Shown here: positions 1,308-20,214 of the stretch, one piece after another
Position numbering within the stretch: the first letter of the stretch is position 1
Layout: every line of letters starts with the position of its first letter
Source: a virus
UHGV virus genome: UHGV-0206901
Direction: 5' to 3' (one strand)
Length of the DNA: 26,230 bases
Translations under genes and position numbers: made by a program
Notes under the pieces: generated by a model
Seen by the model: only the letters and a program-made list of their open reading frames with translations
Told to the model about the DNA's origin: nothing
The model's database searches: none

Positions 1308-3451
1308 GAATTATCAAGCGAAACGGCGCAGAGGTGCCGTATGACTGTGAAAAGATCAGAGCCGCAATTACTGCGGCAAACGATGAGATGGATTCCGGCG
1401 ACAGGATCACAGATACAGTAATCGGCTTTATCGTCGGCAGAGTCGAGCAGCGGTGTGAGACGCTTGCAAGACCTGTCCATGTCGAAGAAGTCCAGGACAT
1501 GGTTCTAGATGAGCTTGACAAAGCCGAGGCTTACAAACTTGCACGGCACTACAGCGAATACAGACTCCTGCATGAACAGCAGCGCAGGATGAATACCACG
1601 GACGGAAAAATTCTCAGCTTGCTGGAACGCAATAACGAGGAGGCAAAGCAGGAGAATGCGAACAAGAACCCGATCATCAACAGCACGCTCCGGGACTATA
1701 TGGCAGGCGAAGTCAGCAAGGACATCTGCCGTCGCTTCCTGTTCCCAGCAGATGTGATCGCCGCCCACGATGACGGCATCATCCATGTACACGATCTGGA
1801 CTACATCGCAGAGCCGATGCACAACTGCTGTCTGGTCAATCTTGAAGATATGCTCCAGAACGGTACGGTCGTATCCGGTACAATGATCGAAAAGCCGCAC
1901 AGCTTTTCCACTGCGTGTAACATTGCTACACAGATCATTGCGCAGGTCGCGTCGAACCAGTACGGCGGGCAGACAATTTCTCTGGCACATCTTGCGACTT
2001 TTGTGGATGTCAGCAGACAAAAGATCAGAGCCGAGGTATCTGAGGATGTGAACTGCGACTGCGGCGCAAAGCTGTCGGCGGAAGAACTCGACCATATCGT
2101 TGAGAAGCGTGTGCGCCGGGAAGTCAAGCGTGGTGTACAGACCATCCAGTACCAGATAAACACACTGCTCACCACCAACGGGCAGACTCCGTTTGTGACG
2201 GTGTTTATGTATTTGGACGAGGTGTCGGAGGGACAGACCAGAGATGACCTTGCGCTCATTATCGAGGAAACGCTGCTTCAGCGTATCGAGGGTGTGAAAA
2301 ATGAGAAGGGCGTCTGGATCACCCCGGCATTCCCGAAGCTTATCTATGTTCTCGATAAGGGTAATATCACCGAGGACAGCCGCTATTGGTATCTTACGAA
2401 GCTTGCCGCAAAATGCACGGCAAAGCGTATGGTTCCTGACTATATCTCCGCCAAGATCATGAAGAAGCTGAAGGGTGATGTGTATGCCTGCATGGGCTGC
2501 CGCAGTTTCCTCACGCCTTCGGACGATCACAAGTATTACGGCAGATTCAATCAGGGTGTTGTCACGCTGAATCTGGTGGATGTGGCGTGTTCTTCCAACG
2601 GTGATATGGACAAATTCTGGCAGCTTCTGAATGAACGCTGCGACCTATGCTTCAAGGCTCTGATGTGCAGGCATGAGCGGCTGAAAGGTACGCCGTCTGA
2701 TGTTGCGCCGATCCTCTGGCAGAACGGTGCATTGGCACGACTCGGCAAGGGTGAAACAATCGACAAGCTGCTGTATAACAATTACAGCACCATTTCACTC
2801 GGCTATGCCGGCATCGCAGAAATGACCTACCGCATGACGGGCTGTTCGCATACGGAGCCGGACGGAAAAGTATTTGCACTTGCAGTGATGAAATTCCTGA
2901 ATGAGAAGTGTGCGGCATGGAGAGAGCAGACAGGGATTTCTTTCTCCCTGTACGGCACGCCGATGGAATCTGTGACCTACAAATTCTCTCAGTGCTTACA
3001 GCGCAGACACGGTATTATCCCTCATGTGACGGATAAAAACTACATCACAAATTCGTATCATGTTCACGTTACTGAGCCGATTGACGCATTCAGCAAGCTG
3101 ACATTCGAGTCCGAATTTCAGGAGCTTTCACCGGGCGGTGCGATCAGCTATGTGGAAGTGCCGAATATGCAGCACAATATTCCTGCGGTACTTGCACTGA
3201 TGCGGCATATCTACGAAACGATTTTGTACGCCGAACTGAACACCAAATCTGATTACTGTCAGGCTTGCGGCTATGACGGCGAAATACAGATCGTGGAGGA
3301 GGACGGCAAGCTGATCTGGGAATGCCCGAACTGCGGCAACCGCGATCAGCGGACACTGAATGTATGCCGCCGCACCTGCGGTTACCTCGGAACGCAGTTC
3401 TGGAATCAGGGGCGCACCGCTGAGATCAAAGACCGGGTGATGCACCTGTGA
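1304..3451 (+). CDS. nrdD: Anaerobic ribonucleoside-triphosphate reductase (class III RNR)
   Basis: 715 aa; N-terminal ATP-cone-like region (MRIIKRNGAEVPYDCEKIRAAI); C-terminal zinc ribbon CQACG...CPNCG; glycyl-radical motif RRTCGYLG close to the C-terminus; followed directly by the activase gene. Confidence 0.93.
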   Translation: MRIIKRNGAEVPYDCEKIRAAITAANDEMDSGDRITDTVIGFIVGRVEQRCETLARPVHVEEVQDMVLDELDKAEAYKLARHYSEYRLLHEQQRRMNTTDGKILSLLERNNEEAKQENANKNPIINSTLRDYMAGEVSKDICRRFLFPADVIAAHDDGIIHVHDLDYIAEPMHNCCLVNLEDMLQNGTVVSGTMIEKPHSFSTACNIATQIIAQVASNQYGGQTISLAHLATFVDVSRQKIRAEVSEDVNCDCGAKLSAEELDHIVEKRVRREVKRGVQTIQYQINTLLTTNGQTPFVTVFMYLDEVSEGQTRDDLALIIEETLLQRIEGVKNEKGVWITPAFPKLIYVLDKGNITEDSRYWYLTKLAAKCTAKRMVPDYISAKIMKKLKGDVYACMGCRSFLTPSDDHKYYGRFNQGVVTLNLVDVACSSNGDMDKFWQLLNERCDLCFKALMCRHERLKGTPSDVAPILWQNGALARLGKGETIDKLLYNNYSTISLGYAGIAEMTYRMTGCSHTEPDGKVFALAVMKFLNEKCAAWREQTGISFSLYGTPMESVTYKFSQCLQRRHGIIPHVTDKNYITNSYHVHVTEPIDAFSKLTFESEFQELSPGGAISYVEVPNMQHNIPAVLALMRHIYETILYAELNTKSDYCQACGYDGEIQIVEEDGKLIWECPNCGNRDQRTLNVCRRTCGYLGTQFWNQGRTAEIKDRVMHL

Positions 3452-3915
3452 ATTACTGCGGTCTGAATAAAAACGACATCGCCAACGGTGACGGTGTACG
3501 AGTTTCGCTGTTCGTATCCGGATGCCGGAATCACTGCAAGGGCTGTCACAACCCGGAGACATGGGATTTCAGCTATGGACAGCCTTTCACCAAGAAAACT
3601 GAAGATGAGATCATCGAAGCCCTGCGTCCCTCGTGGATACAGGGGCTTTCTGTTCTCGGCGGTGAACCCTGCGAGGAAGAAAACGAGCGTGTGCTGCTGC
3701 CGCTGCTGAAAAAGATCTGGTGGGAGATGCCGGAAAAAGATATTTGGCTGTATAGCGGGTACACCTATGAACAGTTGCAAGGCAGAGCGATACTTCGGTA
3801 TGTGGATGTACTTGTGGACGGTCCGTTTCTGCTGGAGCAGAAGGATATCTCGCTTCCGTTCCGCGGCAGCCGGAATCAACGGATCCTCCGATTAAGAAAT
3901 GGGGTACGGGTATGA
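3448..3915 (+). CDS. nrdG: Anaerobic ribonucleotide reductase activating protein (radical SAM)
   Basis: GTG start overlapping the nrdD stop (GTGA); N-terminus MNYCGLNKNDIANGDGVRVSLFVSGCRNHCKGCHN matches the canonical NrdG N-terminus, including the CxxxCxxC radical-SAM cluster. Confidence 0.9.
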   Translation: MNYCGLNKNDIANGDGVRVSLFVSGCRNHCKGCHNPETWDFSYGQPFTKKTEDEIIEALRPSWIQGLSVLGGEPCEEENERVLLPLLKKIWWEMPEKDIWLYSGYTYEQLQGRAILRYVDVLVDGPFLLEQKDISLPFRGSRNQRILRLRNGVRV

Positions 3916-4229
3916 GAGCCAGACTGAGACCGCCAGGAGATGCCGTTCGCTGCGATGCCTGCGGATGTGCATTTGTTCCGGAAACACTGACGCAGCGTGA
4001 GGGTGAGATCGAATACAGCTTCTTCCGCTGCGACTATTGCGGCAAGGCGTATCTCGTATCCGTTACGGATGCAGACCTCTGCAAGGATATCCGCAGATAC
4101 AGAACGCTTGCGGAAAAGCACAAGATCAAGCCCCTGAGTGAACAGTCGCTCCGCGAGATGGCTGCGCTGAAAGAGCAGAACTTAAAACGAGCCGCAAAGC
4201 TGCGGCAGTTGTACTATGTGGAGGGATGA
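3912..4229 (+). CDS. Zinc-ribbon protein, function unknown
   Basis: 105-aa ORF whose ATG overlaps the nrdG stop; two CxxC pairs (CDACGC, CDYCGK); basic C-terminal tail. Confidence 0.5.
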   Translation: MRARLRPPGDAVRCDACGCAFVPETLTQREGEIEYSFFRCDYCGKAYLVSVTDADLCKDIRRYRTLAEKHKIKPLSEQSLREMAALKEQNLKRAAKLRQLYYVEG

Positions 4230-4230
4230 G

Positions 4231-5514
4231 ATGAAGACAGCAGAACTTCGTGTGATCCCTGTCACGGAGCTGAAGCCTGCGGCATATAACCCGCGCAAAA
4301 AGCTGAAGCCCGGCGACAAGGAATACGAAAAGATCAAAAACAGCATCGAGGAATTCGGCTTTGCCGATCCGCTGGTAGTCAACGCCGACATGACCATCAT
4401 CGGCGGGCATCAGCGACTGACCGTAGCGATGGCGCTCGGATACACCGAGGTACCCTGTGCGGTGGTGGACATCGACAAGGTCAGAGAAAAGGCGCTGAAC
4501 ATTGCGCTCAACAAGATCACCGGCGCATGGGACGAGAGCCTTCTGGCTGAACTGTTGCAGGACATTCAGGACAGCGACTTCGACCTCGGAAAGACCGGCT
4601 TTGATCCGCCGGAGATCGAGCAGCTTTTCAATCAGGTACACAATAAAGACATCAAGGAAGATGACTTTGATATTGAAGAAGAGCTGAAACAGCCGACCTT
4701 CTCAAAACTCGGTGACCTGTGGATTCTGGGCAAGCACCGTATCGTCTGCGGTGACAGCACCAAGTCGGAAACCTACGAGCTGCTTATGAACGGTGAAAAA
4801 GCAAATCTCCTGCTGACCGATCCGCCGTACCTCGTAGCATACAGCAATACCTCCGGCAGCATCAAGAACGATGACCTTTCGGATAAGGAAGGCTATGAAT
4901 TCCTGAAAAGCGCATTTGCCTGTTTCAAAGAGAACCTTGCAGATGATTCTGCGGTGTATGTTTTCTACGCGACATCAAAATCGAGGGTGTTCTATGACGC
5001 TTTCGAGGATGCCGGATTCCGTGTTTCTTGCGGATTGGTCTGGCGCAAGGACAGGCTTGTGCTGTCGAGGACGGACTATCAGCAGAACTTCGAGCCTGTG
5101 ATCTACGGCTGGAAAAAGAACGGCAAGCACACATGGTACGGTGACCGTAAGCAGACCACCTGCTTTGACTTCGACCGTCCGAAAAGCTCCAAAGCCGAGG
5201 GTGAGGGACATCCGACTGCAAAGCCTGTACCGCTGATGGCATATCTCATCAAGCAGTCCACCATGACAAACGGCATTGTGCTGGACGGCTTCCACGGTTC
5301 CGGTTCTACCATGATCGCCTGTGAACAGCTCGACCGAAAATGCAGAGCTGTAGAATTGGATGAAAAGTTTGTGGACGTTCAAGTGAAGCGGTATATCAAA
5401 TTCCGCGAGGGCAAGTACGATGATGTGTATGTCATCCGTGACGGGCAGAAGCTTTCCTTCGATGAAGCGGTGGCAGCGATGCCGACAGCAGAGGGTGGTG
5501 ATACGAATGGGTGA
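4231..5514 (+). CDS. ParB-like nuclease domain fused to a DNA amino-methyltransferase (probably N6-adenine; beta-class motif order)
   Basis: ATG at 4231 preceded by GGAGGGA; N-terminal ParB/Srx-like region (ELKPAAYNPRK...IIGGHQRL); central LLLTDPPY (motif IV) precedes GFHGSGST (motif I), the beta-class order. Confidence 0.85.
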   Translation: MKTAELRVIPVTELKPAAYNPRKKLKPGDKEYEKIKNSIEEFGFADPLVVNADMTIIGGHQRLTVAMALGYTEVPCAVVDIDKVREKALNIALNKITGAWDESLLAELLQDIQDSDFDLGKTGFDPPEIEQLFNQVHNKDIKEDDFDIEEELKQPTFSKLGDLWILGKHRIVCGDSTKSETYELLMNGEKANLLLTDPPYLVAYSNTSGSIKNDDLSDKEGYEFLKSAFACFKENLADDSAVYVFYATSKSRVFYDAFEDAGFRVSCGLVWRKDRLVLSRTDYQQNFEPVIYGWKKNGKHTWYGDRKQTTCFDFDRPKSSKAEGEGHPTAKPVPLMAYLIKQSTMTNGIVLDGFHGSGSTMIACEQLDRKCRAVELDEKFVDVQVKRYIKFREGKYDDVYVIRDGQKLSFDEAVAAMPTAEGGDTNG

Positions 5515-6310
5515 ACTGAAACCTCTGCTTCATGTGGTCTCCTTCAGCGGCGGGAAAGACAGCACTGCGATGCTCCTGAAGATGTTAGAAATGGGAATGC
5601 AGGTTGATCTGGTGCTGTTTTGCGATACCGGATTAGAATTCCCGGCACTGTATGACCATGTACACAAAGTCGAACAGGATACCGGCGTGAAAATCACGAC
5701 TGTAAAGAGCGAAAACACATTTGAGTATCTCATGCTCCACAAGCCGATCAAGCGGAAGAAACCGGAACTGCGCGGCAAGACCGGTTACAGTTGGGCGGGA
5801 CCGCTGATGCGGTGGTGTACAAACCTTCTGAAAACGGTGCCTCGTGAGAAGTTTCTCAGCGAACTGCGGAAAAATTACGATGTGATCGAGTACATCGGCA
5901 TCGCCGCCGATGAAACGGAACGCATCACGCACAAATGCAGCTGCCGACCGAATGTCCGTCTGCCGCTTGTGGAGTGGGGCATGACCGAAGCTGACTGCCT
6001 GCAATACTGCAGGGAACGCGGCTATGACTGGGGCGGTCTGTATGAGAAATTCGGACGGGTATCCTGTTGGTGCTGTCCGCTGCAGCCGCTGAACGAGCTG
6101 CGTGTCCTCTACTACGATTTTCCCGACCTCTGGAAACAACTCAGGGAATGGGATGATGCAACATGGCGCACCTTCAAGCCCGGATGGTCAGTCCGGAAAC
6201 TGGAGGCGCGTTTTGATTTTGAGCTGGAATGGCAGACGGACGGCAATCAGCTCGGCACAAAGGAATTCCACAAAGCCCTGAAAAAGAGACTGGAGGATGT
6301 CGATGGCTGA
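5507..6310 (+). CDS. PAPS-reductase-like PP-loop protein (DndC-like fold family), possible DNA-modification accessory enzyme
   Basis: Internal ATG at 5507 with upstream GAGGGTGGTGA; PP-loop motif SFSGGKDS near the N-terminus; C-terminal cysteine cluster CWCCP; 8-nt overlap with the upstream methyltransferase gene and 8-nt overlap with the downstream one. Confidence 0.75.
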   Translation: MGELKPLLHVVSFSGGKDSTAMLLKMLEMGMQVDLVLFCDTGLEFPALYDHVHKVEQDTGVKITTVKSENTFEYLMLHKPIKRKKPELRGKTGYSWAGPLMRWCTNLLKTVPREKFLSELRKNYDVIEYIGIAADETERITHKCSCRPNVRLPLVEWGMTEADCLQYCRERGYDWGGLYEKFGRVSCWCCPLQPLNELRVLYYDFPDLWKQLREWDDATWRTFKPGWSVRKLEARFDFELEWQTDGNQLGTKEFHKALKKRLEDVDG

Positions 6311-7082
6311 TGTGAAATGTGAGCTGTATCACGATAACTTCCAGAACTTCAAATCCTACTGCATCCCAAAAGCACAGCTCGTCATTGCTGACATTCCGTA
6401 CAACATCGGCGGCGACTTTTATGCCAGCCGTCCCGACTGGTATGTGAACGGTGACAATCAGAACGGTGAAAGCAGCAAAGCGCACAAGGCTGCATTCCAC
6501 ACGGATTACACCTTCAACATCGCTGAATACTTCGCCTTCTGTAACCGGCTGCTCAAAAAGGAGCCGTCCAAAGGTGAGAAGGATGCTCCCTGCATGATTG
6601 TATTCTGTGCCTTTCAGCAGATACCCGAGGTCATCCGGCAGGCGGAGAAATACGGCTTCAAGAAGTATCAGTTTTTGTGCTTTATGAAGAATTACAGTCC
6701 GCAGGTGCTGAAGGCGAACATGAGGATCGTGGGCGCAACGGAGTTTGCTCTGGTGCTGTATCGGGGAAAGCTGCCGAAGTTCCGCAATACCGATGCATAC
6801 GGCAAGAGGCACATGATCTTCGACCATTTTGACTGGATGCGGGACGGCAAGGATATCCCGAAGATACATCCTTCGCAGAAGCCGGTAAATCTCCTGAAAC
6901 GGCTGATCGGGATATTTACCGACGAGGGTGATGTGGTCATCGATCCCTGCGCCGGTTCCGGCTCAACGCTGCGTGCGGCGAGGGAGCTTGGCAGACACAG
7001 CTACGGCTTTGAAGTCAGCCGAGATTTTTACAACAAAGCCTGTGAGCAGATGCTTGGGGAGGTGCAGGATGACAAAGTATGA
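6303..7082 (+). CDS. DNA amino-methyltransferase (N6-adenine or N4-cytosine), divergent motif IV
   Basis: ATG at 6303 is 6 nt after GGAGG; IADIPYN (variant DPPY-type motif IV) near the N-terminus and DPCAGSGST (motif I, AdoMet binding) near the C-terminus. Confidence 0.7.
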   Translation: MADVKCELYHDNFQNFKSYCIPKAQLVIADIPYNIGGDFYASRPDWYVNGDNQNGESSKAHKAAFHTDYTFNIAEYFAFCNRLLKKEPSKGEKDAPCMIVFCAFQQIPEVIRQAEKYGFKKYQFLCFMKNYSPQVLKANMRIVGATEFALVLYRGKLPKFRNTDAYGKRHMIFDHFDWMRDGKDIPKIHPSQKPVNLLKRLIGIFTDEGDVVIDPCAGSGSTLRAARELGRHSYGFEVSRDFYNKACEQMLGEVQDDKV

Positions 7083-7284
7083 GTGCGCCATTGTGACGGC
7101 ATACACAGATATCTCGATGCTGTGCGGCGATGATCTGAAATATCTGTATGACTATCTTTCCGGCTTTATCGGCAGACCGGTGTATACACACGAGATTCCT
7201 GCGGTGGCTGCGGCTTACAGAGACAAGATCAGAGAGGACTTCCTCGATCTGTGCAGGAACGCAAAGGAGGCGGATGATGGATAA
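7069..7284 (+). CDS. Small hypothetical protein
   Basis: 71-aa ORF starting at an internal ATG of ORF 6928-7284, overlapping the upstream methyltransferase stop; no recognisable motif; the 11-nt overlap with the next gene suggests translational coupling. Confidence 0.4.
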   Translation: MTKYECAIVTAYTDISMLCGDDLKYLYDYLSGFIGRPVYTHEIPAVAAAYRDKIREDFLDLCRNAKEADDG

Positions 7285-9487
7285 GAAACACTTGACCCTC
7301 GGCAGCCTGTTTGACGGCTCGGGGGGGTTTCCGCTTGGCGGCATCCTCGCAGGGATCGAGCCGAAGTGGAGCAGCGAAATTGAACCTTTTCCGGTGCTTG
7401 TCACGCACAAGCGACTGCCTGGGGTGAAGCACTACGGCGATGTATCCACACTGAACGGTGCAGAGCTTCCGCCGGTGGATATTATCACCTTCGGCAGCCC
7501 TTGTCAGGATCTGTCCATTGCTGGAAAGCGTGCCGGAATCCATGACGGTGATCGGTCGAACCTGTTCTTTCAGGCGATCCGTATCATCAAAGAAATGAGG
7601 GATGCAACAAATGGACAATACCCGCGATACTGCGTCTGGGAGAATGTCCCCGGCGCTTTCTCCTCCCACGGAGGAGACGATTTCAAAGCTGTCCTCGAAG
7701 CAGTTATCGGAATTAAAGAAGAAGGGATCGAGGTGCCTGCGCCTGAAAATCACAGATGGGCAAAATCAGACGTATATCTGGGAGACGGATGGAGCGTGGC
7801 TTACCGAGTTTTCGATGCTCAATACTGGGGTGTCCCCCAACGCAGAGCAAGAATCTACCTTGTCGCAGATTTTGCTGGCGGAAGTGCCGGAGAAATACTA
7901 TTTAAGTCCGAAGGCGTGTCTGGGTATACTCCGCAGGGCTTCCGTTCGTGGCAAGGAACTGCCGGAGGTGCTGAAGAAAGCACTGGAGCGACAGGCTGGC
8001 GGTCTGACGCTGGAGGTGGAACCCTCTGCGTAAACTGTCAGGGCACGGCAGGTGTCGGTATCACAGAAGATAAGGCACTGGCACTTGTCGCACAGGATCA
8101 CGGGAATCATCCAGCCGTTCTTGCCGCAGGTTTTTCCACAGAGCATAGTGCAAAAGCACGAAGCATCGGCTACGAAGAGGAAGTATCTCCTACACTGAGA
8201 GCTGGTGTTGTTCCGGCGGCAATGGAGCTTCAAAGCTATCCCGTTGAAAATCATCCTGCGGATTCGAGAGTCAGGGTGCGTGAGGACGGAAAGTGTCAGG
8301 GGCTTACAGGCAGAATGGGAACAGGCGGCGGAAACGTACCGCTTGTAGCAGAACCGATTACGCTAAAAATCCGCAGTGGTGGCGGAAATGGTGGTAAGGG
8401 CGCTATCTGGCAAACAGATAAATCCGCAACTCTTGCAACCAATAATGACCAGACGCTTTTTCAGCCGGAGGTCAAGGCTTTCGGTGTATGCAGCAAGCAC
8501 TCCAATGCGATGATGTCCGACAATCCGCACAGCGGATTCTATGAGGCGACCACAAGCAGAACGCTCGACCAAAGTGGTGGAAATTCTGTGACATCGAATC
8601 AGGGCGGCATCTGCGTGGTAGCACCTGCGCCTGAAACCTTCGATGTGCGTTTCACATCAGACGGTACAAAAAACGCTCGTGGGCATTGTTACCCGACAGA
8701 CATTTCCCGATGCCTTGATACGAGCGAGGCGAACCCGGACAGCAATCACGGAGGAGTTGCGGTGGTGGCTCTCGAACCGGGGGCGGCATCCCGTATCGGC
8801 GGTCATGTATACAGTGACGGCAAAAGCGGCACGCTCCGTGCAAATGCCGGAGACAATCAGCAGGCTGTTGTGGTAGCCGAGAAGGAGACCTATGCACTGC
8901 AAGGCTCGATGATCGGTCGCGCCGATCAGAACGGACCGCAGGGTGATGGTATCAATGAAGATGTGTGCTTTACGCTGAACACAACAGACAGGCATGCTGT
9001 CGCAGCACCGGATGCCGATCACTACAGCACAAGCAAGAATTCTCACCACACAGTCGCCGCACATGAACAGGCAAACACGCTGGTCGCATCCGACTGGAAG
9101 GATCCTCCGCTTGTGAACGACCTTCCGAATGACGAGCCGGTATATATCGTTCGTCGTCTGACTCCGGTGGAGTGCGCCAGATTGCAGGGATTCCCCGACT
9201 GGTGGTGTGCCGACCTTGCGATTCCCGATCCGACCGATGAGGAGATCACCTTCTGGATGGAAGTATGGGAAACTTGGAGACAGATCACAAATCCCAAGGG
9301 AAAGCCGAAAACGGAAAAGCAGATCCGCAAATGGTTGGCTGATCCGTACACGGACAGTGCCGAGTACAAGTTATGGGGCAACGGTGTCTCAGAGCCCGTT
9401 GTGTTCTTCGTGCTATCCGGCATTGCCTGGGCGGCACAGAATTCTGAAACTAATGCAGCAAATTGTGAACATTCTGATACTATGTAA
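7274..9487 (+). CDS. DNA cytosine-5 methyltransferase with an exceptionally long variable (target-recognition) region, possibly multispecific
   Basis: ATG at 7274 preceded by AAGGAGG (7264-7270); motif I LFDGSGG, motif IV GSPCQDLS, motif VI ENVPG, motif VIII QRRARIYLV, C-terminal RRLTPVECARLQGFPDWW; about 480 aa lie between motifs VIII and IX. Confidence 0.9.
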   Translation: MMDKKHLTLGSLFDGSGGFPLGGILAGIEPKWSSEIEPFPVLVTHKRLPGVKHYGDVSTLNGAELPPVDIITFGSPCQDLSIAGKRAGIHDGDRSNLFFQAIRIIKEMRDATNGQYPRYCVWENVPGAFSSHGGDDFKAVLEAVIGIKEEGIEVPAPENHRWAKSDVYLGDGWSVAYRVFDAQYWGVPQRRARIYLVADFAGGSAGEILFKSEGVSGYTPQGFRSWQGTAGGAEESTGATGWRSDAGGGTLCVNCQGTAGVGITEDKALALVAQDHGNHPAVLAAGFSTEHSAKARSIGYEEEVSPTLRAGVVPAAMELQSYPVENHPADSRVRVREDGKCQGLTGRMGTGGGNVPLVAEPITLKIRSGGGNGGKGAIWQTDKSATLATNNDQTLFQPEVKAFGVCSKHSNAMMSDNPHSGFYEATTSRTLDQSGGNSVTSNQGGICVVAPAPETFDVRFTSDGTKNARGHCYPTDISRCLDTSEANPDSNHGGVAVVALEPGAASRIGGHVYSDGKSGTLRANAGDNQQAVVVAEKETYALQGSMIGRADQNGPQGDGINEDVCFTLNTTDRHAVAAPDADHYSTSKNSHHTVAAHEQANTLVASDWKDPPLVNDLPNDEPVYIVRRLTPVECARLQGFPDWWCADLAIPDPTDEEITFWMEVWETWRQITNPKGKPKTEKQIRKWLADPYTDSAEYKLWGNGVSEPVVFFVLSGIAWAAQNSETNAANCEHSDTM

Positions 9488-9564: not shown

Positions 9565-9593
9565 TTGATATATCCGCCGTAATGGCGTAATAT
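9565..9593 (+). promoter_or_regulatory. Sigma-A-type promoter cassette 1 (TTGATA, 17 bp, TAATAT) with conserved leader
   Basis: -35 TTGATA at 9565-9570, 17-bp spacer, -10 TAATAT at 9588-9593; leader GTGACTACCGTAAGGGAAAACCGAGCGGAATCAAAAACGAAACGGAGGA precedes the ATG at 9650. Confidence 0.6.
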
Positions 9594-9649: not shown

Positions 9650-10771
9650 ATGAAAACTTATGCAATGATCATTGGAAACCGCAAGGAACTCACAAAGAGA
9701 ATCGAGGCACTCACCGGAGAGCGCAGCGTATACACCTTCATGCCGAGATGCGCCTATGAGATCGGGGCATTCGCAGTCGAGAAGGACGGCACACTTACGG
9801 CACAGGACGATGCCAACCAGAGCGTGATCGACACCCTGAGAGCCGAGGGTATGATCGGTGATGAGATCATCGCAGAGAGCATCGAGGCAGTCGAGCCGGA
9901 GCAGACCGATGAGACCGCAGAGCCGGAACAGCCTGCACCGCCCGTAAGCACCGATGAATGGGACGATGATGAGGATGACGACGATGAGAACAGCGTCGAG
10001 GGCGAGAATGCGGAAGCGGAAGAGCCGGAGGAGTCCGAAGAAAATGCCGATAAGTCGGAGCCTGCCGCAGAGCCAGAAGCCGCACCTCCTGCGACCGAGG
10101 ATGCCTGGGATGATGAACCGGAGGATGAACCCGGCGACGAGCCGGAAGAAACCACCGAGCTTCCTGAACCGCTGACCGCAGAGATCAGCTTCCCGCTGAG
10201 CCATCACACGGTGCAGAGCCTTACGAACCTCATCTGCATGATCCACTCCCGCGGCGCACTTCTCAGCAAGGCGACCGGCGGAGAATTCTTCGCAGACAAG
10301 AGCCTCGCCGATGCGATCCTCGATGACAAGACCTTCCGCAGCATCCACGAGCTTATCGCCTACATCAGAGTATGGGAGGAAACGAATCCCGAACTGAAGG
10401 GCATCCGTTTCGCCGATGACAAGCTGATCTTTGACGGCTTCGGTGCAGCACAGGATGCCGAGACGGTGCAGACCTTCACCAAGCTCGCCGCAGCCATGAA
10501 CAGGATGGCGATCACGCAGAAACGTGTGCAAGCAAAGGATGTCGATGACAGCAACGAAAAGTACGCACTCCGCATCTGGCTGATCCGCCTTGGGCTGAAC
10601 GGTGCTGACTTCAAGGCTGACCGCAAGCGCCTCATGACTCCGCTTTCCGGACACACCGCATTCCGCAACGATGAGGAGCGTGAACGCTGGGAGGCAAAGC
10701 AAAAGGCAAAGCGTGATGCTGCCAGAACCGAACTGACCGAGGAGGATGAAAACGATGCAGTTTCCGAATGA
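9650..10771 (+). CDS. Amidoligase-like paralog, probably catalytically degenerate, with a ~95-aa acidic low-complexity insertion
   Basis: 373 aa; the C-terminal half aligns by eye with the downstream amidoligase-like ORF (TVQSLTNL vs TPQTLRNL; KYALRIWLIRLGLNGADF vs KFAMRTWLMRMGFIGDEF); the GVEIE and HCH motifs of the paralog are absent; residues ~80-172 are D/E/P-rich. Confidence 0.55.
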   Translation: MKTYAMIIGNRKELTKRIEALTGERSVYTFMPRCAYEIGAFAVEKDGTLTAQDDANQSVIDTLRAEGMIGDEIIAESIEAVEPEQTDETAEPEQPAPPVSTDEWDDDEDDDDENSVEGENAEAEEPEESEENADKSEPAAEPEAAPPATEDAWDDEPEDEPGDEPEETTELPEPLTAEISFPLSHHTVQSLTNLICMIHSRGALLSKATGGEFFADKSLADAILDDKTFRSIHELIAYIRVWEETNPELKGIRFADDKLIFDGFGAAQDAETVQTFTKLAAAMNRMAITQKRVQAKDVDDSNEKYALRIWLIRLGLNGADFKADRKRLMTPLSGHTAFRNDEERERWEAKQKAKRDAARTELTEEDENDAVSE

Positions 10772-11003
10772 ACGACAGCTCAAAGCCTTGCGGGAGCGTT
10801 ATCCCGAAGGCACCCTTATCCGACTGAAGCACATGGACGATCCCTACGCACCAGTGCCGCCCGGAACAATTGGCGAGGTTCAGATGGTCGATGACGGCGG
10901 CAACATACACATGGTCTGGCAGAACGGCAGAACGCTTTCTCTTATAGAAGGCGTGGATGATTTCCAGGTCATTTCTGACCGCAATGGGGGCCCCGGAAAA
11001 TAA
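10755..11003 (+). CDS. Small hypothetical protein
   Basis: ATG at 10755 is 8 nt after GGAGGA and overlaps the upstream gene end; 82 aa, glycine-rich beta-like sequence (GTIGEVQMVDDGGNIHMVWQNG). Confidence 0.5.
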   Translation: MQFPNERQLKALRERYPEGTLIRLKHMDDPYAPVPPGTIGEVQMVDDGGNIHMVWQNGRTLSLIEGVDDFQVISDRNGGPGK

Positions 11004-11116: not shown

Positions 11117-11145
11117 TTGCTATATCCTCCGAAAGACGGTAACAT
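11117..11145 (+). promoter_or_regulatory. Sigma-A-type promoter cassette 2 (TTGCTA, 17 bp, TAACAT) with conserved leader
   Basis: -35 at 11117-11122, -10 at 11140-11145; leader GTGACACAACGGAAGGGCAAATGCCCACCGAAAAACCGAATCGGAGGA; ATG at 11201. Confidence 0.6.
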
Positions 11146-11200
11146 GTGACACAACGGAAGGGCAAATGCCCACCGAAAAACCGAATCGGAGGATACCAAA

Positions 11201-12145
11201 ATGACTGAGAAAACCGCACAGCAGATCAACAGAATGAAGGAGCAGACCATCGGGGTTGAGATCGAGATGAACAACATCACCCGCAAGGCTGCCGCAAAGC
11301 TCGCCGCTGACTTCTTCGGCACGAACCGCTACGAGGACACGGCCTGCCGCAACGGCTACTACACTTGGAGCGCATGGGATGCACAGGGGCGCGAGTGGAA
11401 ATTCCAGCGGGACGTGAGCATCGCAGGCTCCGACAGCGAAAAGTGCGAACTGGTCACACCGATCCTGCACTACGCAGACATCGAAACCCTGCAGGAGCTT
11501 GTGAGAAAGCTCAGGAAGGCAGGAGCGCGCAGTGATTACACGCGGGGATGTGGAGTCCACTGCCATATTGGAGCCCAGGGACACACACCGCAGACCTTGA
11601 GAAACCTCGCAAACCTGATGGCAAGCCACGAAACCCTGATCGCCGAGGCAATCAGAGTAGACCAGAGCAGAATGCGCCGCTACTGCAGAACAGTTGACCC
11701 GAGATTCCTTGAACAGCTCAACCGCAAAAAGCCCACCACGATGGCACAGCTTGCGGACATCTGGTACGGCGCACAGGGCTGCGAATACGGCAGAACCCAC
11801 CACTACAACGACAGCCGCTATCACATGCTCAACCTCCACGCTACCTTCACCAAAGGCACGGTCGAGTTCAGACTTTTCCAGTTCGCACCGCCCTCAAACG
11901 GCAAGCAGAACGGGCTCCACGCAGGCAAGCTCAAGAGCTACATTCAGCTCTGCCTCGCAATGAGCCAGATGGCAAAGGACCTGCGGAGCGCCAGCCCCAA
12001 GGAGCAGCAGAAGGAAAACAAAAAGTTCGCCATGCGGACTTGGCTGATGAGAATGGGATTCATCGGGGATGAATTCGCAACGGCGAGAGAGGTCCTCACT
12101 GAGAACCTTACGGGCGACAACAGCTTCCGCTTCGGCAGATCTTAA
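11201..12145 (+). CDS. Putative amidoligase (glutamine-synthetase-like / gamma-glutamyl-cysteine-ligase-like ATP-dependent amide ligase family)
   Basis: 314 aa; N-terminal IGVEIEMNN strand with paired glutamates and a central GCGVHCHIG motif, both typical of Amidoligase_2-type enzymes as I recall them; own promoter cassette; followed by an AIG2-like gene. Confidence 0.65.
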   Translation: MTEKTAQQINRMKEQTIGVEIEMNNITRKAAAKLAADFFGTNRYEDTACRNGYYTWSAWDAQGREWKFQRDVSIAGSDSEKCELVTPILHYADIETLQELVRKLRKAGARSDYTRGCGVHCHIGAQGHTPQTLRNLANLMASHETLIAEAIRVDQSRMRRYCRTVDPRFLEQLNRKKPTTMAQLADIWYGAQGCEYGRTHHYNDSRYHMLNLHATFTKGTVEFRLFQFAPPSNGKQNGLHAGKLKSYIQLCLAMSQMAKDLRSASPKEQQKENKKFAMRTWLMRMGFIGDEFATAREVLTENLTGDNSFRFGRS

Positions 12146-12410
12146 AGGCCTGCCCTTCGGGGCGGAAGAACAAGCGGAACGGCACGGCGGCGCACACAGC
12201 CGCCACGGTCTCGGCTCTCGCCTCGGTCGGTGCTTCTGCTTCGCAGAGGTTGCCACTGGCAACCCGCACCCCCGTGTGGGGCGGAAAGGGTATCCTCCGA
12301 ATCGGTATCCCATCTCAGTCAACCGCGCCACACAGCGCAAATGTAGGCAAGGCATAAAATGCACAACATACGGCACAGAATCGCCCTCGATGATCTGTTC
12401 ATTTACTCGC

Positions 12411-12439
12411 TTGATAATGCCGCCGAAATGAGTTAACAT
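12411..12439 (+). promoter_or_regulatory. Sigma-A-type promoter cassette 3 (TTGATA, 17 bp, TAACAT)
   Basis: -35 at 12411-12416, -10 at 12434-12439; leader AGCACTACCGCAAGGAAAAAACGCAAAGGAG; ATG at 12479. Confidence 0.55.
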
Positions 12440-12478
12440 AGCACTACCGCAAGGAAAAAACGCAAAGGAGAACATAGC

Positions 12479-12940
12479 ATGAACAAGAAAAAATACTACA
12501 TAGCCTACGGCAGCAACCTCAACATCCGCCAGATGCGATTCCGCTGCCCAGGCGCAAAGCCTATCGGCATCACGGTGATTCCCGACTACGAACTGCTCTA
12601 CAAGGGCAGCAAGACCGGCGCGTACCTGACCATAGAACCGAAGAAGAACGGCATCGTTCCGATTGCGGTATGGGAGGTCACCGCAGCAGACGAGAAGCGG
12701 CTGGATGCCTACGAGGGCTGCCCGACCTTCTACTACAAGAAGAACGTCTGCCTGCCGGTGAAGCTGGCAAGCGGCAAGACCAAGCGCCTGACAGCATTCG
12801 TCTACATCATGCACGAGGAGCGCAGCCTCGGAATTCCGTCGCTTGCCTACATCCGCACCTGCGAGGAAGGCTATCGCAACTTCGGATTTGATTTGAAGTA
12901 CCTTGACAGGGCATACATGAGAAGCACAAAGGAGGACTGA
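12479..12940 (+). CDS. AIG2 / gamma-glutamyl cyclotransferase (GGCT)-like protein
   Basis: 153 aa; N-terminal YIAYGSNLN matches the Y-x-A-Y-G-S-N-L/M hallmark of the GGCT/AIG2 fold; a candidate catalytic Glu lies in LDAYEGCP. Confidence 0.7.
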   Translation: MNKKKYYIAYGSNLNIRQMRFRCPGAKPIGITVIPDYELLYKGSKTGAYLTIEPKKNGIVPIAVWEVTAADEKRLDAYEGCPTFYYKKNVCLPVKLASGKTKRLTAFVYIMHEERSLGIPSLAYIRTCEEGYRNFGFDLKYLDRAYMRSTKED

Positions 12941-12942
12941 AA

Positions 12943-13146
12943 ATGAAAGAACAAGTTTTTGAAAAGCGTACATGTCCGAAATGCGGACGCACCTACACCG
13001 AGCGCCCTGCCCTATCCCGCTACGACAACGACACGATCATCTGCCCGGACTGCGGCACGAGGGAGGCGCTTGAAAGCATCGGCGTCGGACGCGAGGAACA
13101 GGACAAGATTCTCGGCATTATCCACGAGAAGTACAACGGCGAATAA
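12943..13146 (+). CDS. Small zinc-ribbon protein
   Basis: 67 aa; GGAGG RBS; CPKCG...CPDCG cysteine pairs; the ATG is 2 nt after the upstream stop. Confidence 0.55.
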   Translation: MKEQVFEKRTCPKCGRTYTERPALSRYDNDTIICPDCGTREALESIGVGREEQDKILGIIHEKYNGE

Positions 13147-13178: not shown

Positions 13179-13317
13179 GCATTCTCAGGGATAACTTATC
13201 CCCCACTTTCCGGGCGTGACACGGCGCGTTCTGGCGCAAACTGTGGGCTTGTGTATATGTACCTGTTCAGCTTGCTGAAAACGGCGATTCTTCTACGATT
13301 TATTTTGCACATAGGCG

Positions 13318-14463: not shown

Positions 14464-14847
14464 ATGAGTACGAATTCAAGAGTCGGAATCCTGCATCAGG
14501 ACGGCGCCACGGAGACAATCTACTGCCATTGGGACGGCTACCCCGAACACCAGATGCCCATCCTCACCGAGCATTATAACACCGCCGAGAAGGTCAAGGC
14601 ACTGCTTGCCCTTGGAGACATCAGCATCCTCGGCGAGCGCCTTGCTCCCGATGCGGATGAGCCGCACAGCTTTGAAAAGCCTGCCGATGGTGTGACGGTT
14701 GCTTACCACCGCGACCGCAAAGAGCCGATGCAGCCTGCGGTCACCCACAAGAGCGTTGTTTCCCTGATGAGCGATGACTGGGGCATTCCGTATTACTACC
14801 TTTTCGATGAGGAAAAAGGAGCATGGCTTCCGCCGACCGAGGACTGA
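14464..14847 (+). CDS. Hypothetical protein
   Basis: Internal ATG at 14464 is 9 nt after GGAGG; 127 aa; probably co-transcribed with the preceding gene (no promoter cassette in between, only a hairpin). Confidence 0.5.
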   Translation: MSTNSRVGILHQDGATETIYCHWDGYPEHQMPILTEHYNTAEKVKALLALGDISILGERLAPDADEPHSFEKPADGVTVAYHRDRKEPMQPAVTHKSVVSLMSDDWGIPYYYLFDEEKGAWLPPTED

Positions 14848-15276
14848 TAGGTTCAGCCCTGCGGGGCTGACTTGCCCCACGTTGTCCTTTGTGAGGTTTT
14901 CCTGCGATAAGCTTGCCCCTGCGGAAAGCCGCCTCACACGGCGCGTTTGTGTGCTGACCGCAGTCATCGCAAACCTGTCGGCCACGGGAACATGGACGGA
15001 GCGAGAAGTGATGGAAACGCTGCTGGATGTCTTTGAACCGAAGGAGCTTGAACAGCTCGGCTACGGCGACTGCGTGAACGCATACTTGGAAGAGTACGGC
15101 GGATGGCGACGACACACGCACCACGTTGCCTCGTGTGGGGCGGTGCCGGGGAGATGCGTACAGCTTGCCCCTGCGAAAAGCCGCCTTACACGGCGCGTTC
15201 TGGCGCGTCCTATACGATGTACAATTCCGCCCGACTTCCCGCCTCATGTTTGTCACATTTATTTTGCAGACAGACG

Positions 15277-15305
15277 TGGACTTTTCTGCGAAAAGACGGT
15301 AATAT
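15277..15305 (+). promoter_or_regulatory. Sigma-A-type promoter cassette 6 (TGGACT, 17 bp, TAATAT)
   Basis: Upstream TTTATTTTGCAGACAGACG; leader GTGACTACCGCAAGAGAAGCGGAATCAATCAAAAGGAG; ATG at 15353. Confidence 0.6.
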
Positions 15306-15352
15306 GTGACTACCGCAAGAGAAGCGGAATCAATCAAAAGGAGCGAATCTAC

Positions 15353-15706
15353 ATGAAAATTCTGGTATGCGAACCCGGCAAGCACCCCTACGTCAAGGAC
15401 ATCGAGTCGGGGCTGGAGAACCTTCAGCACGAGGTGGACGGACTGATTCAGGCCCTCTACCCATTTTCCGAAGAGGCGGCTGTTGTGTGCAACGAAGAAG
15501 GGCTGTTCCGCGATGACCTCGAATGGAACAGAACGGTCGATCCCTATGGTCCGATCAAGGGAACATTCTTCATTTGTGGGCTCGGCTTTGAAGATTTTAC
15601 AGGACTGACCGATGAACAGATCGAAAAGTACACTAAGCTCTTCTGGCCTCCTGAGCTTTTCATCCCGACACCGAACGGCATGGTGGTGCTTCACATTGTG
15701 GAATGA
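15353..15706 (+). CDS. Hypothetical protein
   Basis: 117 aa, starting at the ATG placed like the other cassette-driven genes; the longer ORF-track frame (14774-15706) reads through repeat and promoter sequence and is probably not all coding. Confidence 0.55.
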   Translation: MKILVCEPGKHPYVKDIESGLENLQHEVDGLIQALYPFSEEAAVVCNEEGLFRDDLEWNRTVDPYGPIKGTFFICGLGFEDFTGLTDEQIEKYTKLFWPPELFIPTPNGMVVLHIVE

Positions 15707-16403: not shown

Positions 16404-16604
16404 TCGGCAAAACGGAGCAGTCCTTCTGCGGAGGGGCTGTTCCACGCCACGTTCGCTTGTGTGGGGGGCTTACGGCTTTCTGCGGATATCTTGCCCCGCG
16501 ATAAAAGCCGCCCACACGGCGCATTTGTGTGCCTCCTGCGGCAAGGCATAATATGTACAACAACCGACAAAAAATCGCCTTGCACATTCTGGTAGTTTAG
16601 CCGC

Positions 16605-17074: not shown

Positions 17075-17548
17075 ATGGCTCAGAGAGGCAGAAAACCGAC
17101 GCCGACAGCAATCAAGGAACTGGAAGGCAATCCGGGCAAGCGTCCGCTGAATGATGCAGAGCCGAAGCCGGAACGCAAGGCACCGCCCTGTCCGAAATGG
17201 CTGGAGCCCGAAGCAAAAAAGGAATGGCGCAGGCTGTCAAAGCAACTGGAGCAGATTGGTGTGCTGACCGAGGTCGATCAGGCGGCATTCGCATCCTACT
17301 GTCAGGCATACGCACGATGGAAAGAAGCCGAGGAATTCATGACACAGCACGGCACGATCGTGAAAACAAAATCAGGTTACTGGCAGCAGGTGCCGCAGGT
17401 ATCCATTGCACAGACCTATCTGAAGATCATGAATAAGATCGCAGAACAGTTCGGTCTGACTCCTGCCGCAAGAAGCAGGATCACCGCAGGTGCGGATATG
17501 AAGGACGCTGCCGTTGACGATATGGATGAACTTCTCGGAGGTGACTGA
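17075..17548 (+). CDS. terS: Terminase small subunit
   Basis: AAGGAG 8 nt upstream of the ATG at 17075; 157 aa; basic N-terminus (RGRKPTPTAIKELEGNPGKRP) and overall pattern typical of P27-family small terminases; sits directly upstream of, and overlaps, the large terminase. Confidence 0.8.
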   Translation: MAQRGRKPTPTAIKELEGNPGKRPLNDAEPKPERKAPPCPKWLEPEAKKEWRRLSKQLEQIGVLTEVDQAAFASYCQAYARWKEAEEFMTQHGTIVKTKSGYWQQVPQVSIAQTYLKIMNKIAEQFGLTPAARSRITAGADMKDAAVDDMDELLGGD

Positions 17549-20214
17549 TGGCGAGAACGGCAAAGGCAAGAGAAAGACCTGCCAACTATCCGAAACTGAA
17601 GGATTATAAACCGACACGCTTTATGCTGCCGGAATCGCACTACGATGCGGCAAAGGCTGACCGAGCTGTGCGGTTCATCGAGAATCTCTGCCATACCAAA
17701 GGACGCTGGGCAGGAAAGCCGTTCTGGTTGCTGCCGTGGCAGGAACAGATCATCCGGGATATTTTCGGCATCGTCAAAGAGGATGATACCCGCCAATTCC
17801 GCACAGCTTATGTCGAAATTCCAAAGAAAAATGGGAAGCAGCTTGCACTGGATACACCGATCCCGACTCCGCAGGGATTCACCAATATGGGAGATCTGAA
17901 GGTCGGAGATACAGTATTCGATGAAAACGGCATTCCGTGCCATGTGGTTGCGAAAAGTCCTGTGGATGATACAGAGCAAGCCTACAAGCTGACCTTCAAG
18001 GACGGCAGCTCGATCATCGCCGGAGAACGGCATCTGTGGAACTGTCAGTATATTTACGGCAAACGCAAGGATGTTCTCTGGACGACCGGCGAGATCTATC
18101 GCAGGACTTCAGAATACAGACGGCGATTCTCAGACCGACCGCAGTCAAAGCGGGATTCTCTGATCCGAATTCCGGTGTGCGGTGTCCTTCAGACAGAAGC
18201 GGCAGTTTTACCGATTGATCCGTATCTGTACGGCTACTGGCTCGGAAACGGTAATGTGACCATGCCGGAGATCACTGTTCGGACGGAGGATGTCGAGGAT
18301 ATCATCTCGAATATTCCGTATAAGGTACACAACCGTTATCCGCAGAAATGCGGCGGCAGTGAGATCATAAAGTACAATGAACTGAAAGCAGTACTACTTG
18401 ACAGCTTCCGTGAAAAGAAGATCCGACCAGAATATCTGAGGGCATCCGCAGAGCAGAGATGGGCATTACTGCAAGGGCTTATGGATTCGGACGGCTGTAT
18501 CGGTGAACGCAAAGGGCAAAGTGTGTATGTCACAACGCTGCGAGAGCTGGCGCTTTCCGTCAGAGAACTGCTGTGGTCGCTCGGTATCAAAAATGCAGTG
18601 AAATGTGAGCCTTCTACTCGGCATGGGTGGCCGACTGGAGAGATTTTGTATATCGTCCGGTTTACTACCTTTGACGATCAGCCGACATCAAGACTGAAAC
18701 GAAAGTACACACGCACACGGGCGCGGGTGAAAGAAACTCGCTCCTGTTTTCATTATTTACTGGACATTCAGCCTGTGGATCATCCTGTGAAAATGCAGTG
18801 TATTCAGGTGGATAGTCCTAGCCACCAATATCTTGCTGGAACATCGTTTGTGCCTACGCACAACAGTGAGCTTGCAGCCGCAATTGCGCTGTATCTGCTC
18901 TACGCTGACAACGAGCCATCCGCCGAGGTCTACGGTGCTGCCGCCGACCGACAGCAGGCATCCATTGTATTCGATGTCGCCAAAAGAATGGTTGAGATGA
19001 CACTGGCACTTCTGAAACGCTCAAAAATCATGGCGGCGACAAAGCGTCTGGTGAATTACAGCAATGTCGGTTTCTATCAGGTGCTTTCGGCGGAGGTCGG
19101 AACAAAACACGGTCTGAATGTATCTGGGCTTGTGCTTGACGAGCTTCATGTTCAGCCGAACCGTAATCTTGTGGACGTTCTCACAAAGGGATCCGGTGAT
19201 GCCCGTACTCAGCCGCTGTACTTCCTGATCACCACAGCCGGCACTGACCGAAACAGCATCTGCTATGAATACCACACCAAGGCAAAAGACATCCTCGAAG
19301 GGCGGCGTATCGATCCGTCATTCTATCCTGTCATTTACGGTCTGGATGACGGCGACGACTGGAATTCAGAGGAATCGTGGTACAAGGCAAATCCGTCTCT
19401 CGAATACACAATTACCATAGACCGTGTGCGGGATGCCCATCGTGAAGCACTGACAAATCCTGCGGAAGAAAATGTATTCCGTCAGCTTCGTCTTGATCAG
19501 TGGGTTGGCAGTGCGGTTGCATGGGTGCCGGAGCATATCTACGACAAAGGCAATATACCAATCAATCCGGAGTCTCTGTACGGACGCGAGTGCTATGCAG
19601 GACTGGACCTTTCCAGTACATCTGATATCACGGCATTTGTTCTGGTATTCCCACCGTTGTATGAGGGTGATAAATACATCGTTGTACCCCACTTCTGGCT
19701 GCCGAGGGAAACACTTGACCTGCGTGTACGGCGAGACCATGTTCCCTACGATGTATGGGAGCGCATGGGGCTATTTCATATCACCGAGGGCAATGTGGTG
19801 GACTACAACTTCGTGCGGAAAACGATCAATGAGCTGCACACGATGTATAACATCAAGGAAATTGCAGCAGACCGCTGGAATGCCACACAGCTTATCACCG
19901 ACCTGCAGGGTGACGGTTTTACCGTTGTCCCGATGGGCATGGGCTTCAAGGATATGTCGCCACCGATGAAGGAGCTTTACAAGCTGCTGCTTGAGGGCAA
20001 GTTTATCCATGGCGGAAATCCTGTCCTGCGATGGATGGCAGGAAATGTGGTCGCTGAAATTGACGCGGCGGAAAATATCAAGCCGTCCAAGAAAAAGTCT
20101 ACAGAGAAAATTGACGGCATCGTAGCATGGATCATGGCACTTGACCGCTGCATCCGCCACGAAATGCAGGGCAGTGTCTATGACGAACCCGGCCACGATC
20201 TTGTGGTCATCTGA
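17548..20214 (+). CDS. terL: Terminase large subunit, interrupted by an in-frame intein at the Walker A (P-loop) site
   Basis: 888-aa ORF; N-extein ends ...EIPKKNGK and C-extein begins SELAAAIALYLLYADNEPSAEVYGAAADRQQ, which together rebuild a canonical PKKNGKS P-loop; C-terminal nuclease-domain-like region; followed by the portal gene. Confidence 0.92.
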   Translation: MARTAKARERPANYPKLKDYKPTRFMLPESHYDAAKADRAVRFIENLCHTKGRWAGKPFWLLPWQEQIIRDIFGIVKEDDTRQFRTAYVEIPKKNGKQLALDTPIPTPQGFTNMGDLKVGDTVFDENGIPCHVVAKSPVDDTEQAYKLTFKDGSSIIAGERHLWNCQYIYGKRKDVLWTTGEIYRRTSEYRRRFSDRPQSKRDSLIRIPVCGVLQTEAAVLPIDPYLYGYWLGNGNVTMPEITVRTEDVEDIISNIPYKVHNRYPQKCGGSEIIKYNELKAVLLDSFREKKIRPEYLRASAEQRWALLQGLMDSDGCIGERKGQSVYVTTLRELALSVRELLWSLGIKNAVKCEPSTRHGWPTGEILYIVRFTTFDDQPTSRLKRKYTRTRARVKETRSCFHYLLDIQPVDHPVKMQCIQVDSPSHQYLAGTSFVPTHNSELAAAIALYLLYADNEPSAEVYGAAADRQQASIVFDVAKRMVEMTLALLKRSKIMAATKRLVNYSNVGFYQVLSAEVGTKHGLNVSGLVLDELHVQPNRNLVDVLTKGSGDARTQPLYFLITTAGTDRNSICYEYHTKAKDILEGRRIDPSFYPVIYGLDDGDDWNSEESWYKANPSLEYTITIDRVRDAHREALTNPAEENVFRQLRLDQWVGSAVAWVPEHIYDKGNIPINPESLYGRECYAGLDLSSTSDITAFVLVFPPLYEGDKYIVVPHFWLPRETLDLRVRRDHVPYDVWERMGLFHITEGNVVDYNFVRKTINELHTMYNIKEIAADRWNATQLITDLQGDGFTVVPMGMGFKDMSPPMKELYKLLLEGKFIHGGNPVLRWMAGNVVAEIDAAENIKPSKKKSTEKIDGIVAWIMALDRCIRHEMQGSVYDEPGHDLVVI
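17839..18864 (+). mobile_element. Intein (~342 aa) with an embedded double-motif LAGLIDADG homing endonuclease, inside terL
   Basis: Block A-like LALDTPIPT...GDLKVGDTVF; block B GERHLW; two LAGLIDADG motifs (LYGYWLGNGNV and LLQGLMDSDGCI); terminal ...FVPTHN followed by Ser +1. Confidence 0.8.

Follow-up and report, generated by a model that had tools for sequence, protein, structure and literature searches.

Linked amidoligase and gamma-glutamyl cyclotransferase genes in a Heliusvirales-like gut phage: a candidate module for adding and removing gamma-glutamyl groups

The stretch of DNA analysed here (the window) comprises 26,230 nucleotides of the UHGV virus genome UHGV-0206901; all genes lie on the plus strand. 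The window is a piece of a tailed phage genome, from a gut phage resembling Candidatus (Ca.) Heliusvirales. Our subject is a block of five genes located between the DNA methylases and the terminase. Its core consists of a predicted Amidoligase_2 enzyme (11201–12145, 314 residues) and a predicted gamma-glutamyl cyclotransferase (GGCT) of the AIG2 type (12479–12940, 153 residues). The two enzyme genes are preceded by an apparently inactive amidoligase paralog (9650–10771, 373 residues) and by the gene of a small DUF4314 protein (10746–11003), and are followed by a gene encoding a zinc-ribbon protein (12943–13146, 67 residues). GGAGG-type ribosome-binding sites were found 7–8 nucleotides 5′ of each of the three open reading frames (ORFs) named in a first-pass annotation of this DNA.

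The amidoligase matched the Pfam profile Amidoligase_2 (PF12224) over profile positions 1–244 of 245 (E=1.1e-55, 189.6 bits, cut-off 22) and the family phrog_2443, ‘amidoligase enzyme’ (E=5e-113). Sequence searches against solved structures, performed with the single sequence or with a family profile, gave no true match, and only the comparison of folds was successful. The predicted model has a glutamine synthetase/glutamate-cysteine ligase-like fold; it superposed best on glutamate-cysteine ligases, followed by PafA/Dop and glutamine synthetases. Residues E20, E22, E83, H120, H122, E222 and R224 were unchanged across 38 homologs. Their order, ExE...E...HxH...ExR, is what we take to be a metal- and phosphate-binding pattern, and we assume from the motif order that these residues correspond to those of E. 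coli GshA. To judge from family and fold, the protein is most likely an ATP-dependent carboxylate-amine ligase of the glutamine synthetase/glutamate-cysteine ligase fold.

The cyclotransferase scored above the Pfam cut-offs for GGACT (PF06094, E=1.9e-10, 41.8 bits, cut-off 22.8) and AIG2_2 (PF13772, 27.9 bits, cut-off 27), and matched phrog_2520, ‘gamma-glutamyl cyclotransferase’ (E=5.5e-51). It also matched human GGCT directly (E=2.6e-5, alignment to 2i5t), and the GGCT fold was recovered. In this alignment the YGSNL motif is common to the phage and human proteins, and E79 of the phage enzyme (..AYEG..) stands in the column of the Glu in the human segment ..DEQEG.., which is presumably the catalytic Glu98 of human GGCT. 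YGSNL and Glu79 were invariant in phage homologs with identities of 36–100%. The first-pass annotation had assigned the two ORFs to Amidoligase_2 and AIG2/GGCT from the motifs IGVEIEMNN and GCGVHCHIG in the former and the start YIAYGSNLN in the latter. Both assignments hold: the quoted motifs are present, E20, E22, H120 and H122 within them are among the invariant residues, both proteins exceed the curated Pfam cut-offs in profile searches, and both expected folds were found by structure comparison. NCBIfam models gave nothing for the enzymes.

The 373-residue protein encoded upstream was without a Pfam match, but matched phrog_2443 (E=9e-37) and, in a BLASTP comparison, the C-terminus of the amidoligase (5e-11). 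Alignment of the paralog and amidoligase families with hhalign gave a probability of 99.5% (E=9e-23) for a local match covering the C-terminal two-thirds, and a global alignment with a short member of the paralog family reached 99.9% (E=3.8e-32) over the full length. The N-terminal domain of the paralog alone did not align significantly with the amidoligase (E=0.063), whereas the full-length global alignment was significant. These matches bear out the degenerate paralog proposed in the first-pass annotation. In the alignments the HxH motif is substituted, the Arg224 of ExR is replaced by Pro or Asp and the segment containing Glu83 is deleted; because of these losses the paralog is predicted to be catalytically dead. 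Paralog and amidoligase have in common a C-terminal module of approximately 70 residues, which lies outside the Pfam domain. The paralog also carries a strongly acidic, low-complexity insert (residues ∼75–170, positions 9870–10160), whose length differs greatly among relatives (proteins of 216–381 residues). Short forms, annotated as ‘virulence-related protein’, fill the same slot in Streptococcus Javan phages, which have no amidoligase, and Erysipelothrix phage phi1605 has, like the Javan phages, a C-terminal-only match to ‘virulence-related protein’. Since it is found in phages without amidoligase, the paralog has an existence independent of the enzyme. The 47 distinct paralog tails that we compared are only loosely acidic; 31 end in -SE and 10 in -GGEQ or -GGKQ. 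A Pup-type tag, i.e. a small disordered protein with a conserved C-terminal GG[QE], was recognized neither in the zinc ribbon nor in the paralog tails.

The DUF4314 gene (Pfam PF14192, E=1.2e-27) overlaps the 3′ end of the paralog gene. The zinc-ribbon ORF (CxxC...CxxC; phrog_2945, E=1.2e-23) starts 2 nucleotides past the stop codon of the GGCT gene, with its ribosome-binding site within the end of that gene. Members of the zinc-ribbon family have a highly conserved core, CPxCG...PALSRxDNxTxICPDCGTREAL, and a variable C-terminus. Neither enzyme is present in FP_Mushu, Bacillus phage Flasso or Geobacillus phage GR1, all of which encode a member of the zinc-ribbon family, and this rules out the zinc ribbon as an exclusive partner. 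The adjoining zinc ribbon anticipated by the first-pass annotation is real, but it is a weaker partner than was implied. Scanning with PADLOC defence-system models gave no matches for the enzymes, the paralog or the DUF4314 protein, and only weak, generic zinc-ribbon matches for the fifth protein.

Linkage of the two enzyme genes was assessed in IMG/VR, using the 80 best-scoring loci found with the amidoligase and the 80 best-scoring loci found with a GGCT alignment; loci with enough flanking sequence were counted as testable. Being the best-scoring matches, these loci are related to one another. The GGCT gene was present in all 58 testable amidoligase loci, downstream of the amidoligase in 49 and upstream in 9. 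The upstream paralog and DUF4314 were each found in 63/63 testable loci, and the zinc ribbon in 68/70. In the opposite direction, a full-length amidoligase accompanied the GGCT gene in 67/67 testable loci, and the zinc ribbon in 80/80. The linkage was also seen in annotated phage records with GGCT, of which at least 41 of 45 hold an amidoligase close by, with amidoligase identities down to about 38–45%. The pair is kept at about 44% sequence divergence.

Three observations speak against mere co-inheritance of the two genes. In one clade the gene order is inverted and GGCT is present in a second copy, and the identities of the two genes are uncoupled (e.g. 91% for the amidoligase and 61% for GGCT, an allele swap). 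The neighbouring accessory genes differ among relatives, whereas the block itself is constant. In Blautia phage NatCom_2932 the paralog, the amidoligase and GGCT are followed by a 131-residue protein with an N-terminal DUF4314 domain, which has thus been relocated downstream of GGCT. Published annotations show the pair in other settings. Clostridioides difficile Tn6164 carries, in this order, a methylase, a ‘virulence-related protein’, an amidoligase with adjacent AIG2/GGCT, and a terminase. In Arthrobacter cluster AL phages the amidoligase and AIG2/GGCT are adjacent and have a glutamine amidotransferase gene beside them. In the Pseudomonas LUZ24-like phage UFV-P2 the pair lies a few genes apart in one early-gene cluster, together with a glutamine amidotransferase (GATase), an ATP-grasp protein and a COOH-NH2 ligase. 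The co-occurrence across relatives that the first-pass annotation proposed to check is observed in both directions and extends to distant phages.

The closest structural neighbours of the amidoligase (glutamate-cysteine ligases, PafA/Dop and glutamine synthetases) all activate the gamma-carboxylate of glutamate, and every characterised relative of the ligase fold known to us does so with ATP and passes the activated group to an amine. Gamma-glutamyl amides are the substrates of GGCT-fold enzymes, which release 5-oxoproline from them by cyclisation; for this reaction the glutamyl group needs a free alpha-amine. From this family chemistry and from the linkage we infer, in line with the first-pass annotation, a writer/eraser relationship, which is chemically sensible and would explain the obligate pairing. 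The amidoligase would use ATP to activate a glutamate-type carboxylate as acyl-phosphate and join it to an amine, so that a small molecule or a protein amine would come to bear a gamma-glutamyl-type amide; the GGCT-fold enzyme would later cyclise the attached group intramolecularly, so that 5-oxoproline leaves and the amine is free again. Because of the ligase-fold chemistry and the need of GGCT for a free alpha-amine, the simplest coupled version is that free glutamate is ligated via its gamma-carboxylate to an amine X, and X is later regenerated by GGCT. The dead paralog, with its C-terminal module in common with the ligase, is probably a non-catalytic partner, which might for instance bind the substrate or a partner, and the DUF4314 and zinc-ribbon proteins would be accessory components. 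We give about even chances to the proposal that the block is a conserved accessory module of Heliusvirales-type phages, in which the ligase joins a gamma-glutamyl-type amide and GGCT later removes it, with a role in infection. Family chemistry and gene linkage suggest a common bond as target of both enzymes, glutamate as acyl donor and manipulation of the host during infection. In a more specific form of this proposal the products of the five genes would together gamma-glutamylate a host amine reversibly, such as protein lysines or, for DNA packaging, polyamines, with the dead paralog as targeting subunit. We think this version unlikely; if true, it would represent a new host-takeover or counter-defence chemistry in a highly prevalent order of human gut phages.

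Several observations weigh against the writer/eraser interpretation. A ligase and a cyclotransferase co-expressed and acting on one bond would run a futile, ATP-consuming cycle, unless they are separated in time or by substrate. In the window the two genes are 333 nucleotides apart and each has its own promoter-like cassette; in relatives the spacer varies between 82 and 1111 nucleotides. Searching the spacers with Rfam for a riboswitch or another ligand clue returned nothing meaningful, and neither the sequence analyses nor the literature yielded a substrate, an experiment or a riboswitch hint for the pair. Searchable literature contained no experimental work on Amidoligase_2, nor on either protein family in phages. 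We know of no Amidoligase_2 member with an assigned substrate. Finally, each gene can occur by itself: Faecalibacterium phages have the amidoligase and no detectable GGCT, and Bacillus phage G has tandem GGCT genes (gp513 and gp514, locus 3586–4438) with no amidoligase within the surrounding 8 kb.

Instead of writing and erasing a mark, the two enzymes might catalyse consecutive steps of a pathway. The gamma-glutamyl moiety would then be a transient protecting or activating group, as with BtrJ/BtrG, or the enzymes would perform two steps of the gamma-glutamyl cycle and shift host metabolite pools by turning glutamate into 5-oxoproline with consumption of ATP. The closest folds of the ligase are glutamate-cysteine ligases and the best match of the cyclotransferase is human GGCT, the next enzyme in the gamma-glutamyl cycle; moreover, the Pseudomonas and Arthrobacter phage pairs sit with ATP-grasp, COOH-NH2 ligase and class II GATase genes, which suggests multi-step chemistry. 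The Heliusvirales module, however, encodes no further recognizable enzyme for a reaction between the two steps, and no carrier protein or transferase, and we regard a sequential pathway as fairly unlikely. A modification of the cell envelope (for example of teichoic acid or of the stem peptide of peptidoglycan) that keeps out superinfecting phages, an idea that citing papers attribute to Iyer et al. (2009) for phiEco32, would be compatible with the gamma-glutamyl-type bonds that occur in peptidoglycan. Nevertheless, Pfam detected no signal peptide, membrane segment or cell-wall-binding domain in the five proteins, and the module is located among DNA-modification and packaging genes rather than lysis or lysogenic-conversion genes, so that an envelope function is quite improbable. 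The same location, directly after three DNA methyltransferases, a PAPS-reductase-like gene and NrdDG, could point to DNA or nucleotide hypermodification, and Lee et al. (2021) report amidoligase/amidotransferase genes beside thymidine-hypermodification genes in viral contigs. This role is very unlikely because the signature enzymes are missing: a 5-hydroxymethyl-dUMP-forming enzyme, the kinase 5-HMUDK and aGPT-Pplase are not among the Pfam hits of the window, nor are they annotated in the inspected ∼39 kb of the 56.8-kb genome of a complete relative. In addition, the set of adjoining methylases differs between relatives whereas the module is constant.

The similarity of the ligase to PafA raises the question of Pup-like tagging, in which a small protein, or else the dead paralog, would be joined through its C-terminal Glu or Gln to a target lysine. 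The C-terminus of the zinc ribbon is not conserved, GGEQ/GGKQ ends occur in only 10/47 paralog tails, and the paralog is also found in phages without amidoligase. Tagging of this kind would leave the obligate GGCT unexplained, because cyclisation by GGCT is impossible once the alpha-amine of the glutamate is engaged in a peptide bond; its probability appears to be very slight indeed. We judge it equally doubtful that the two genes have unrelated functions and stay side by side through the shared ancestry of the phage region alone. In favour of such an explanation are the separate promoter-like cassettes of the two genes, the mosaic character of the region, which is made up of independent small genes, and the predominance of one phage order among the examined loci. 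Mere co-inheritance is nonetheless disfavoured by the inversion of gene order, the uncoupled identities (allele exchange) and the variable flanks around a constant block, all of which the pair has outlasted, and the pair recurs in unrelated phages of Actinobacteria and Proteobacteria.

The pairing itself is not new. The first-pass annotation mentioned that it had been noted computationally, and the papers citing Iyer, Abhiman, Burroughs and Aravind (Mol Biosyst 2009) confirm this: according to them, that work described Amidoligase_2 with an AIG2/GGCT neighbour in Firmicutes and essentially proposed the writer/eraser idea. As far as can be seen from these citations, the 2009 pair has the same two families, adjacency and mobile-element or phage setting as ours, and nothing essential differs. 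The same pair is annotated in C. difficile Tn6164, in the prophages of C. clostridioforme LM41 and in Terrisporobacter phage TPDSL_ph1, a relative whose prophage is reported to be active in a cultured host. Both gene names appear in PHROGs and GenBank, and several prophage descriptions list the pair. The module is a further instance of a known gene pair, not a new kind of system. New here are the quantified bidirectional linkage, the identification of the upstream gene as a dead amidoligase paralog with a shared C-terminal module, and the DUF4314 and zinc-ribbon companions. As it stands, the finding restates the 2009 prediction; knowledge of the reactions would account for a gene pair that recurs in phages. 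The module is compact and strictly linked in a widespread gut lineage, and the linkage narrows experiments to two enzymes and three small partners.

Comparison with better known systems reveals partial likenesses. GshA/glutamate-cysteine ligases and YbdK-type ligases, which participate with GGCT in the gamma-glutamyl cycle, have only 10–13% sequence identity with the phage amidoligase; the latter is smaller (314 versus 354–729 residues) and has the extra C-terminal module common with the dead paralog. In contrast to PafA/Dop, the paralog has lost catalytic residues rather than becoming a hydrolase, no Pup-like tag was found, and a GGCT, the predicted eraser here, is unable to act on a linkage of the Pup type. 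Butirosin biosynthesis follows the same logic, with BtrJ adding a gamma-glutamyl group and the AIG2/GGCT-fold enzyme BtrG removing it as 5-oxoproline; BtrJ, however, is an ATP-grasp enzyme, not glutamine synthetase-like, and the butirosin carrier protein and tailoring enzymes are absent here. Pairs of Amidoligase_2 and class II GATase occur in early or accessory regions of phiEco32, LUZ24-like and HMO-2011/OM43 phages. The ligase family is the same, but in these Proteobacteria phages GATase is the partner instead of or besides GGCT, whereas the Heliusvirales module is without GATase. Arthrobacter phage Laroye has both GATase and GGCT. In Faecalibacterium phage FP_Taranis the amidoligase locus (1462–3520) encodes, after the amidoligase and where GGCT would be expected, two ∼130-residue proteins of no recognized family, and then a zinc-ribbon homolog (CPxCG...ALSR...CGTxEAL); other Faecalibacterium phages are alike in this, and these proteins may represent an alternative partner set.

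The accessory genes of the window are preceded by eight promoter-like copies (TTGATA or TGGACA, 17 nucleotides, TAATAT-like), each with a shared leader of ∼55 nucleotides ending in GGAGGA. In an alignment of the eight copies they start at about 9565, 11117, 12411, 13318, 13994, 15277, 15810 and 16605; those preceding the paralog, the amidoligase and GGCT are on the plus strand. Both the alignment and a consensus scan identified the cassettes in front of the dead paralog (9565–9593, TTGATA-17-TAATAT plus the shared leader) and GGCT (12411–12439, TTGATA-17-TAACAT). The cassette preceding the amidoligase (11117–11145, TTGCTA-17-TAACAT plus the shared leader) is weaker; it emerged from the alignment and was not listed by the scan, which detected 10 promoter-like sites compared with 4.3 ± 2.0 in shuffled sequences. 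The separate promoter cassettes claimed for the two enzyme genes can thus be recognized in this sub-lineage as a sequence pattern, with one copy before each gene, and the accessory genes seem to have a moron-like layout with one putative promoter per gene. In some relatives only 82–140 nucleotides separate the amidoligase from GGCT.

Folding of the 333-nucleotide spacer was no better than that of shuffled sequence (z=−0.06). The spacer contains an 18-nucleotide anti-Shine-Dalgarno-like element (12289–12306, plus strand), 144 nucleotides past the amidoligase stop codon, which is complementary in 17/18 positions to the leader of the amidoligase with its Shine-Dalgarno region (11180–11197). The predicted duplex has an energy of −33.1 kcal/mol, compared with −17.1 ± 3.8 for shuffled sequences. 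The element was detected in 25/169 loci, in both gene orders and without clear compensatory changes; in almost all 25 it lies 3′ of the amidoligase, roughly 85–150 nucleotides after the stop codon. The element may regulate translation, or it may be what is left of an inverted cassette. Some cassettes are preceded by intergenic repeats of a second family (GCTTGCCCCTGCGGAAAGCCGCC..ACACGGCGCGTT), at 13214–13237, 14903–14947, 15155–15199 and 16481–16525. These repeats inflate the mechanically called ORF 14774–15706, in which the real gene is probably only the one at the 3′ end, encoding a DUF3846 protein of ∼117 residues.

The nearest annotated genomes are ‘NatCom’ gut phages, classed as Ca. Heliusvirales, which published work describes as a widespread human-gut lineage of phages infecting gut Clostridia. 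An identical amidoligase protein is indexed in 172 blocks of a public assembly collection, and the gene order around it was unchanged in the four contigs shown. On its 5′ side the module is preceded by the anaerobic ribonucleotide reductase genes NrdD/NrdG and then by DNA-modification genes. The latter form a dense block (4216–9487) encoding an N6/N4 methylase fused to ParB-N, a PAPS-reductase-like protein, a second N6/N4 methylase and a C5 methylase of 779 residues; in close relatives an HNH endonuclease gene replaces the PAPS-reductase gene. A series of small accessory genes extends from ∼9.5 to 17 kb. Genes for the small and large terminase subunits, portal, ClpP-like protease, major capsid protein and head completion lie on the 3′ side, and these neighbours, together with the methylases, substantiate the phage setting claimed for the pair. 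The large terminase ORF (17548–20214) encodes 888 residues, whereas the orthologue in phage NatCom_991 has 521. The difference involves an insertion of ∼355 residues (roughly 17840–18905) directly after the Walker A segment (...IPKKNGK), which holds a LAGLIDADG_3 domain and is probably an intein with a homing endonuclease.

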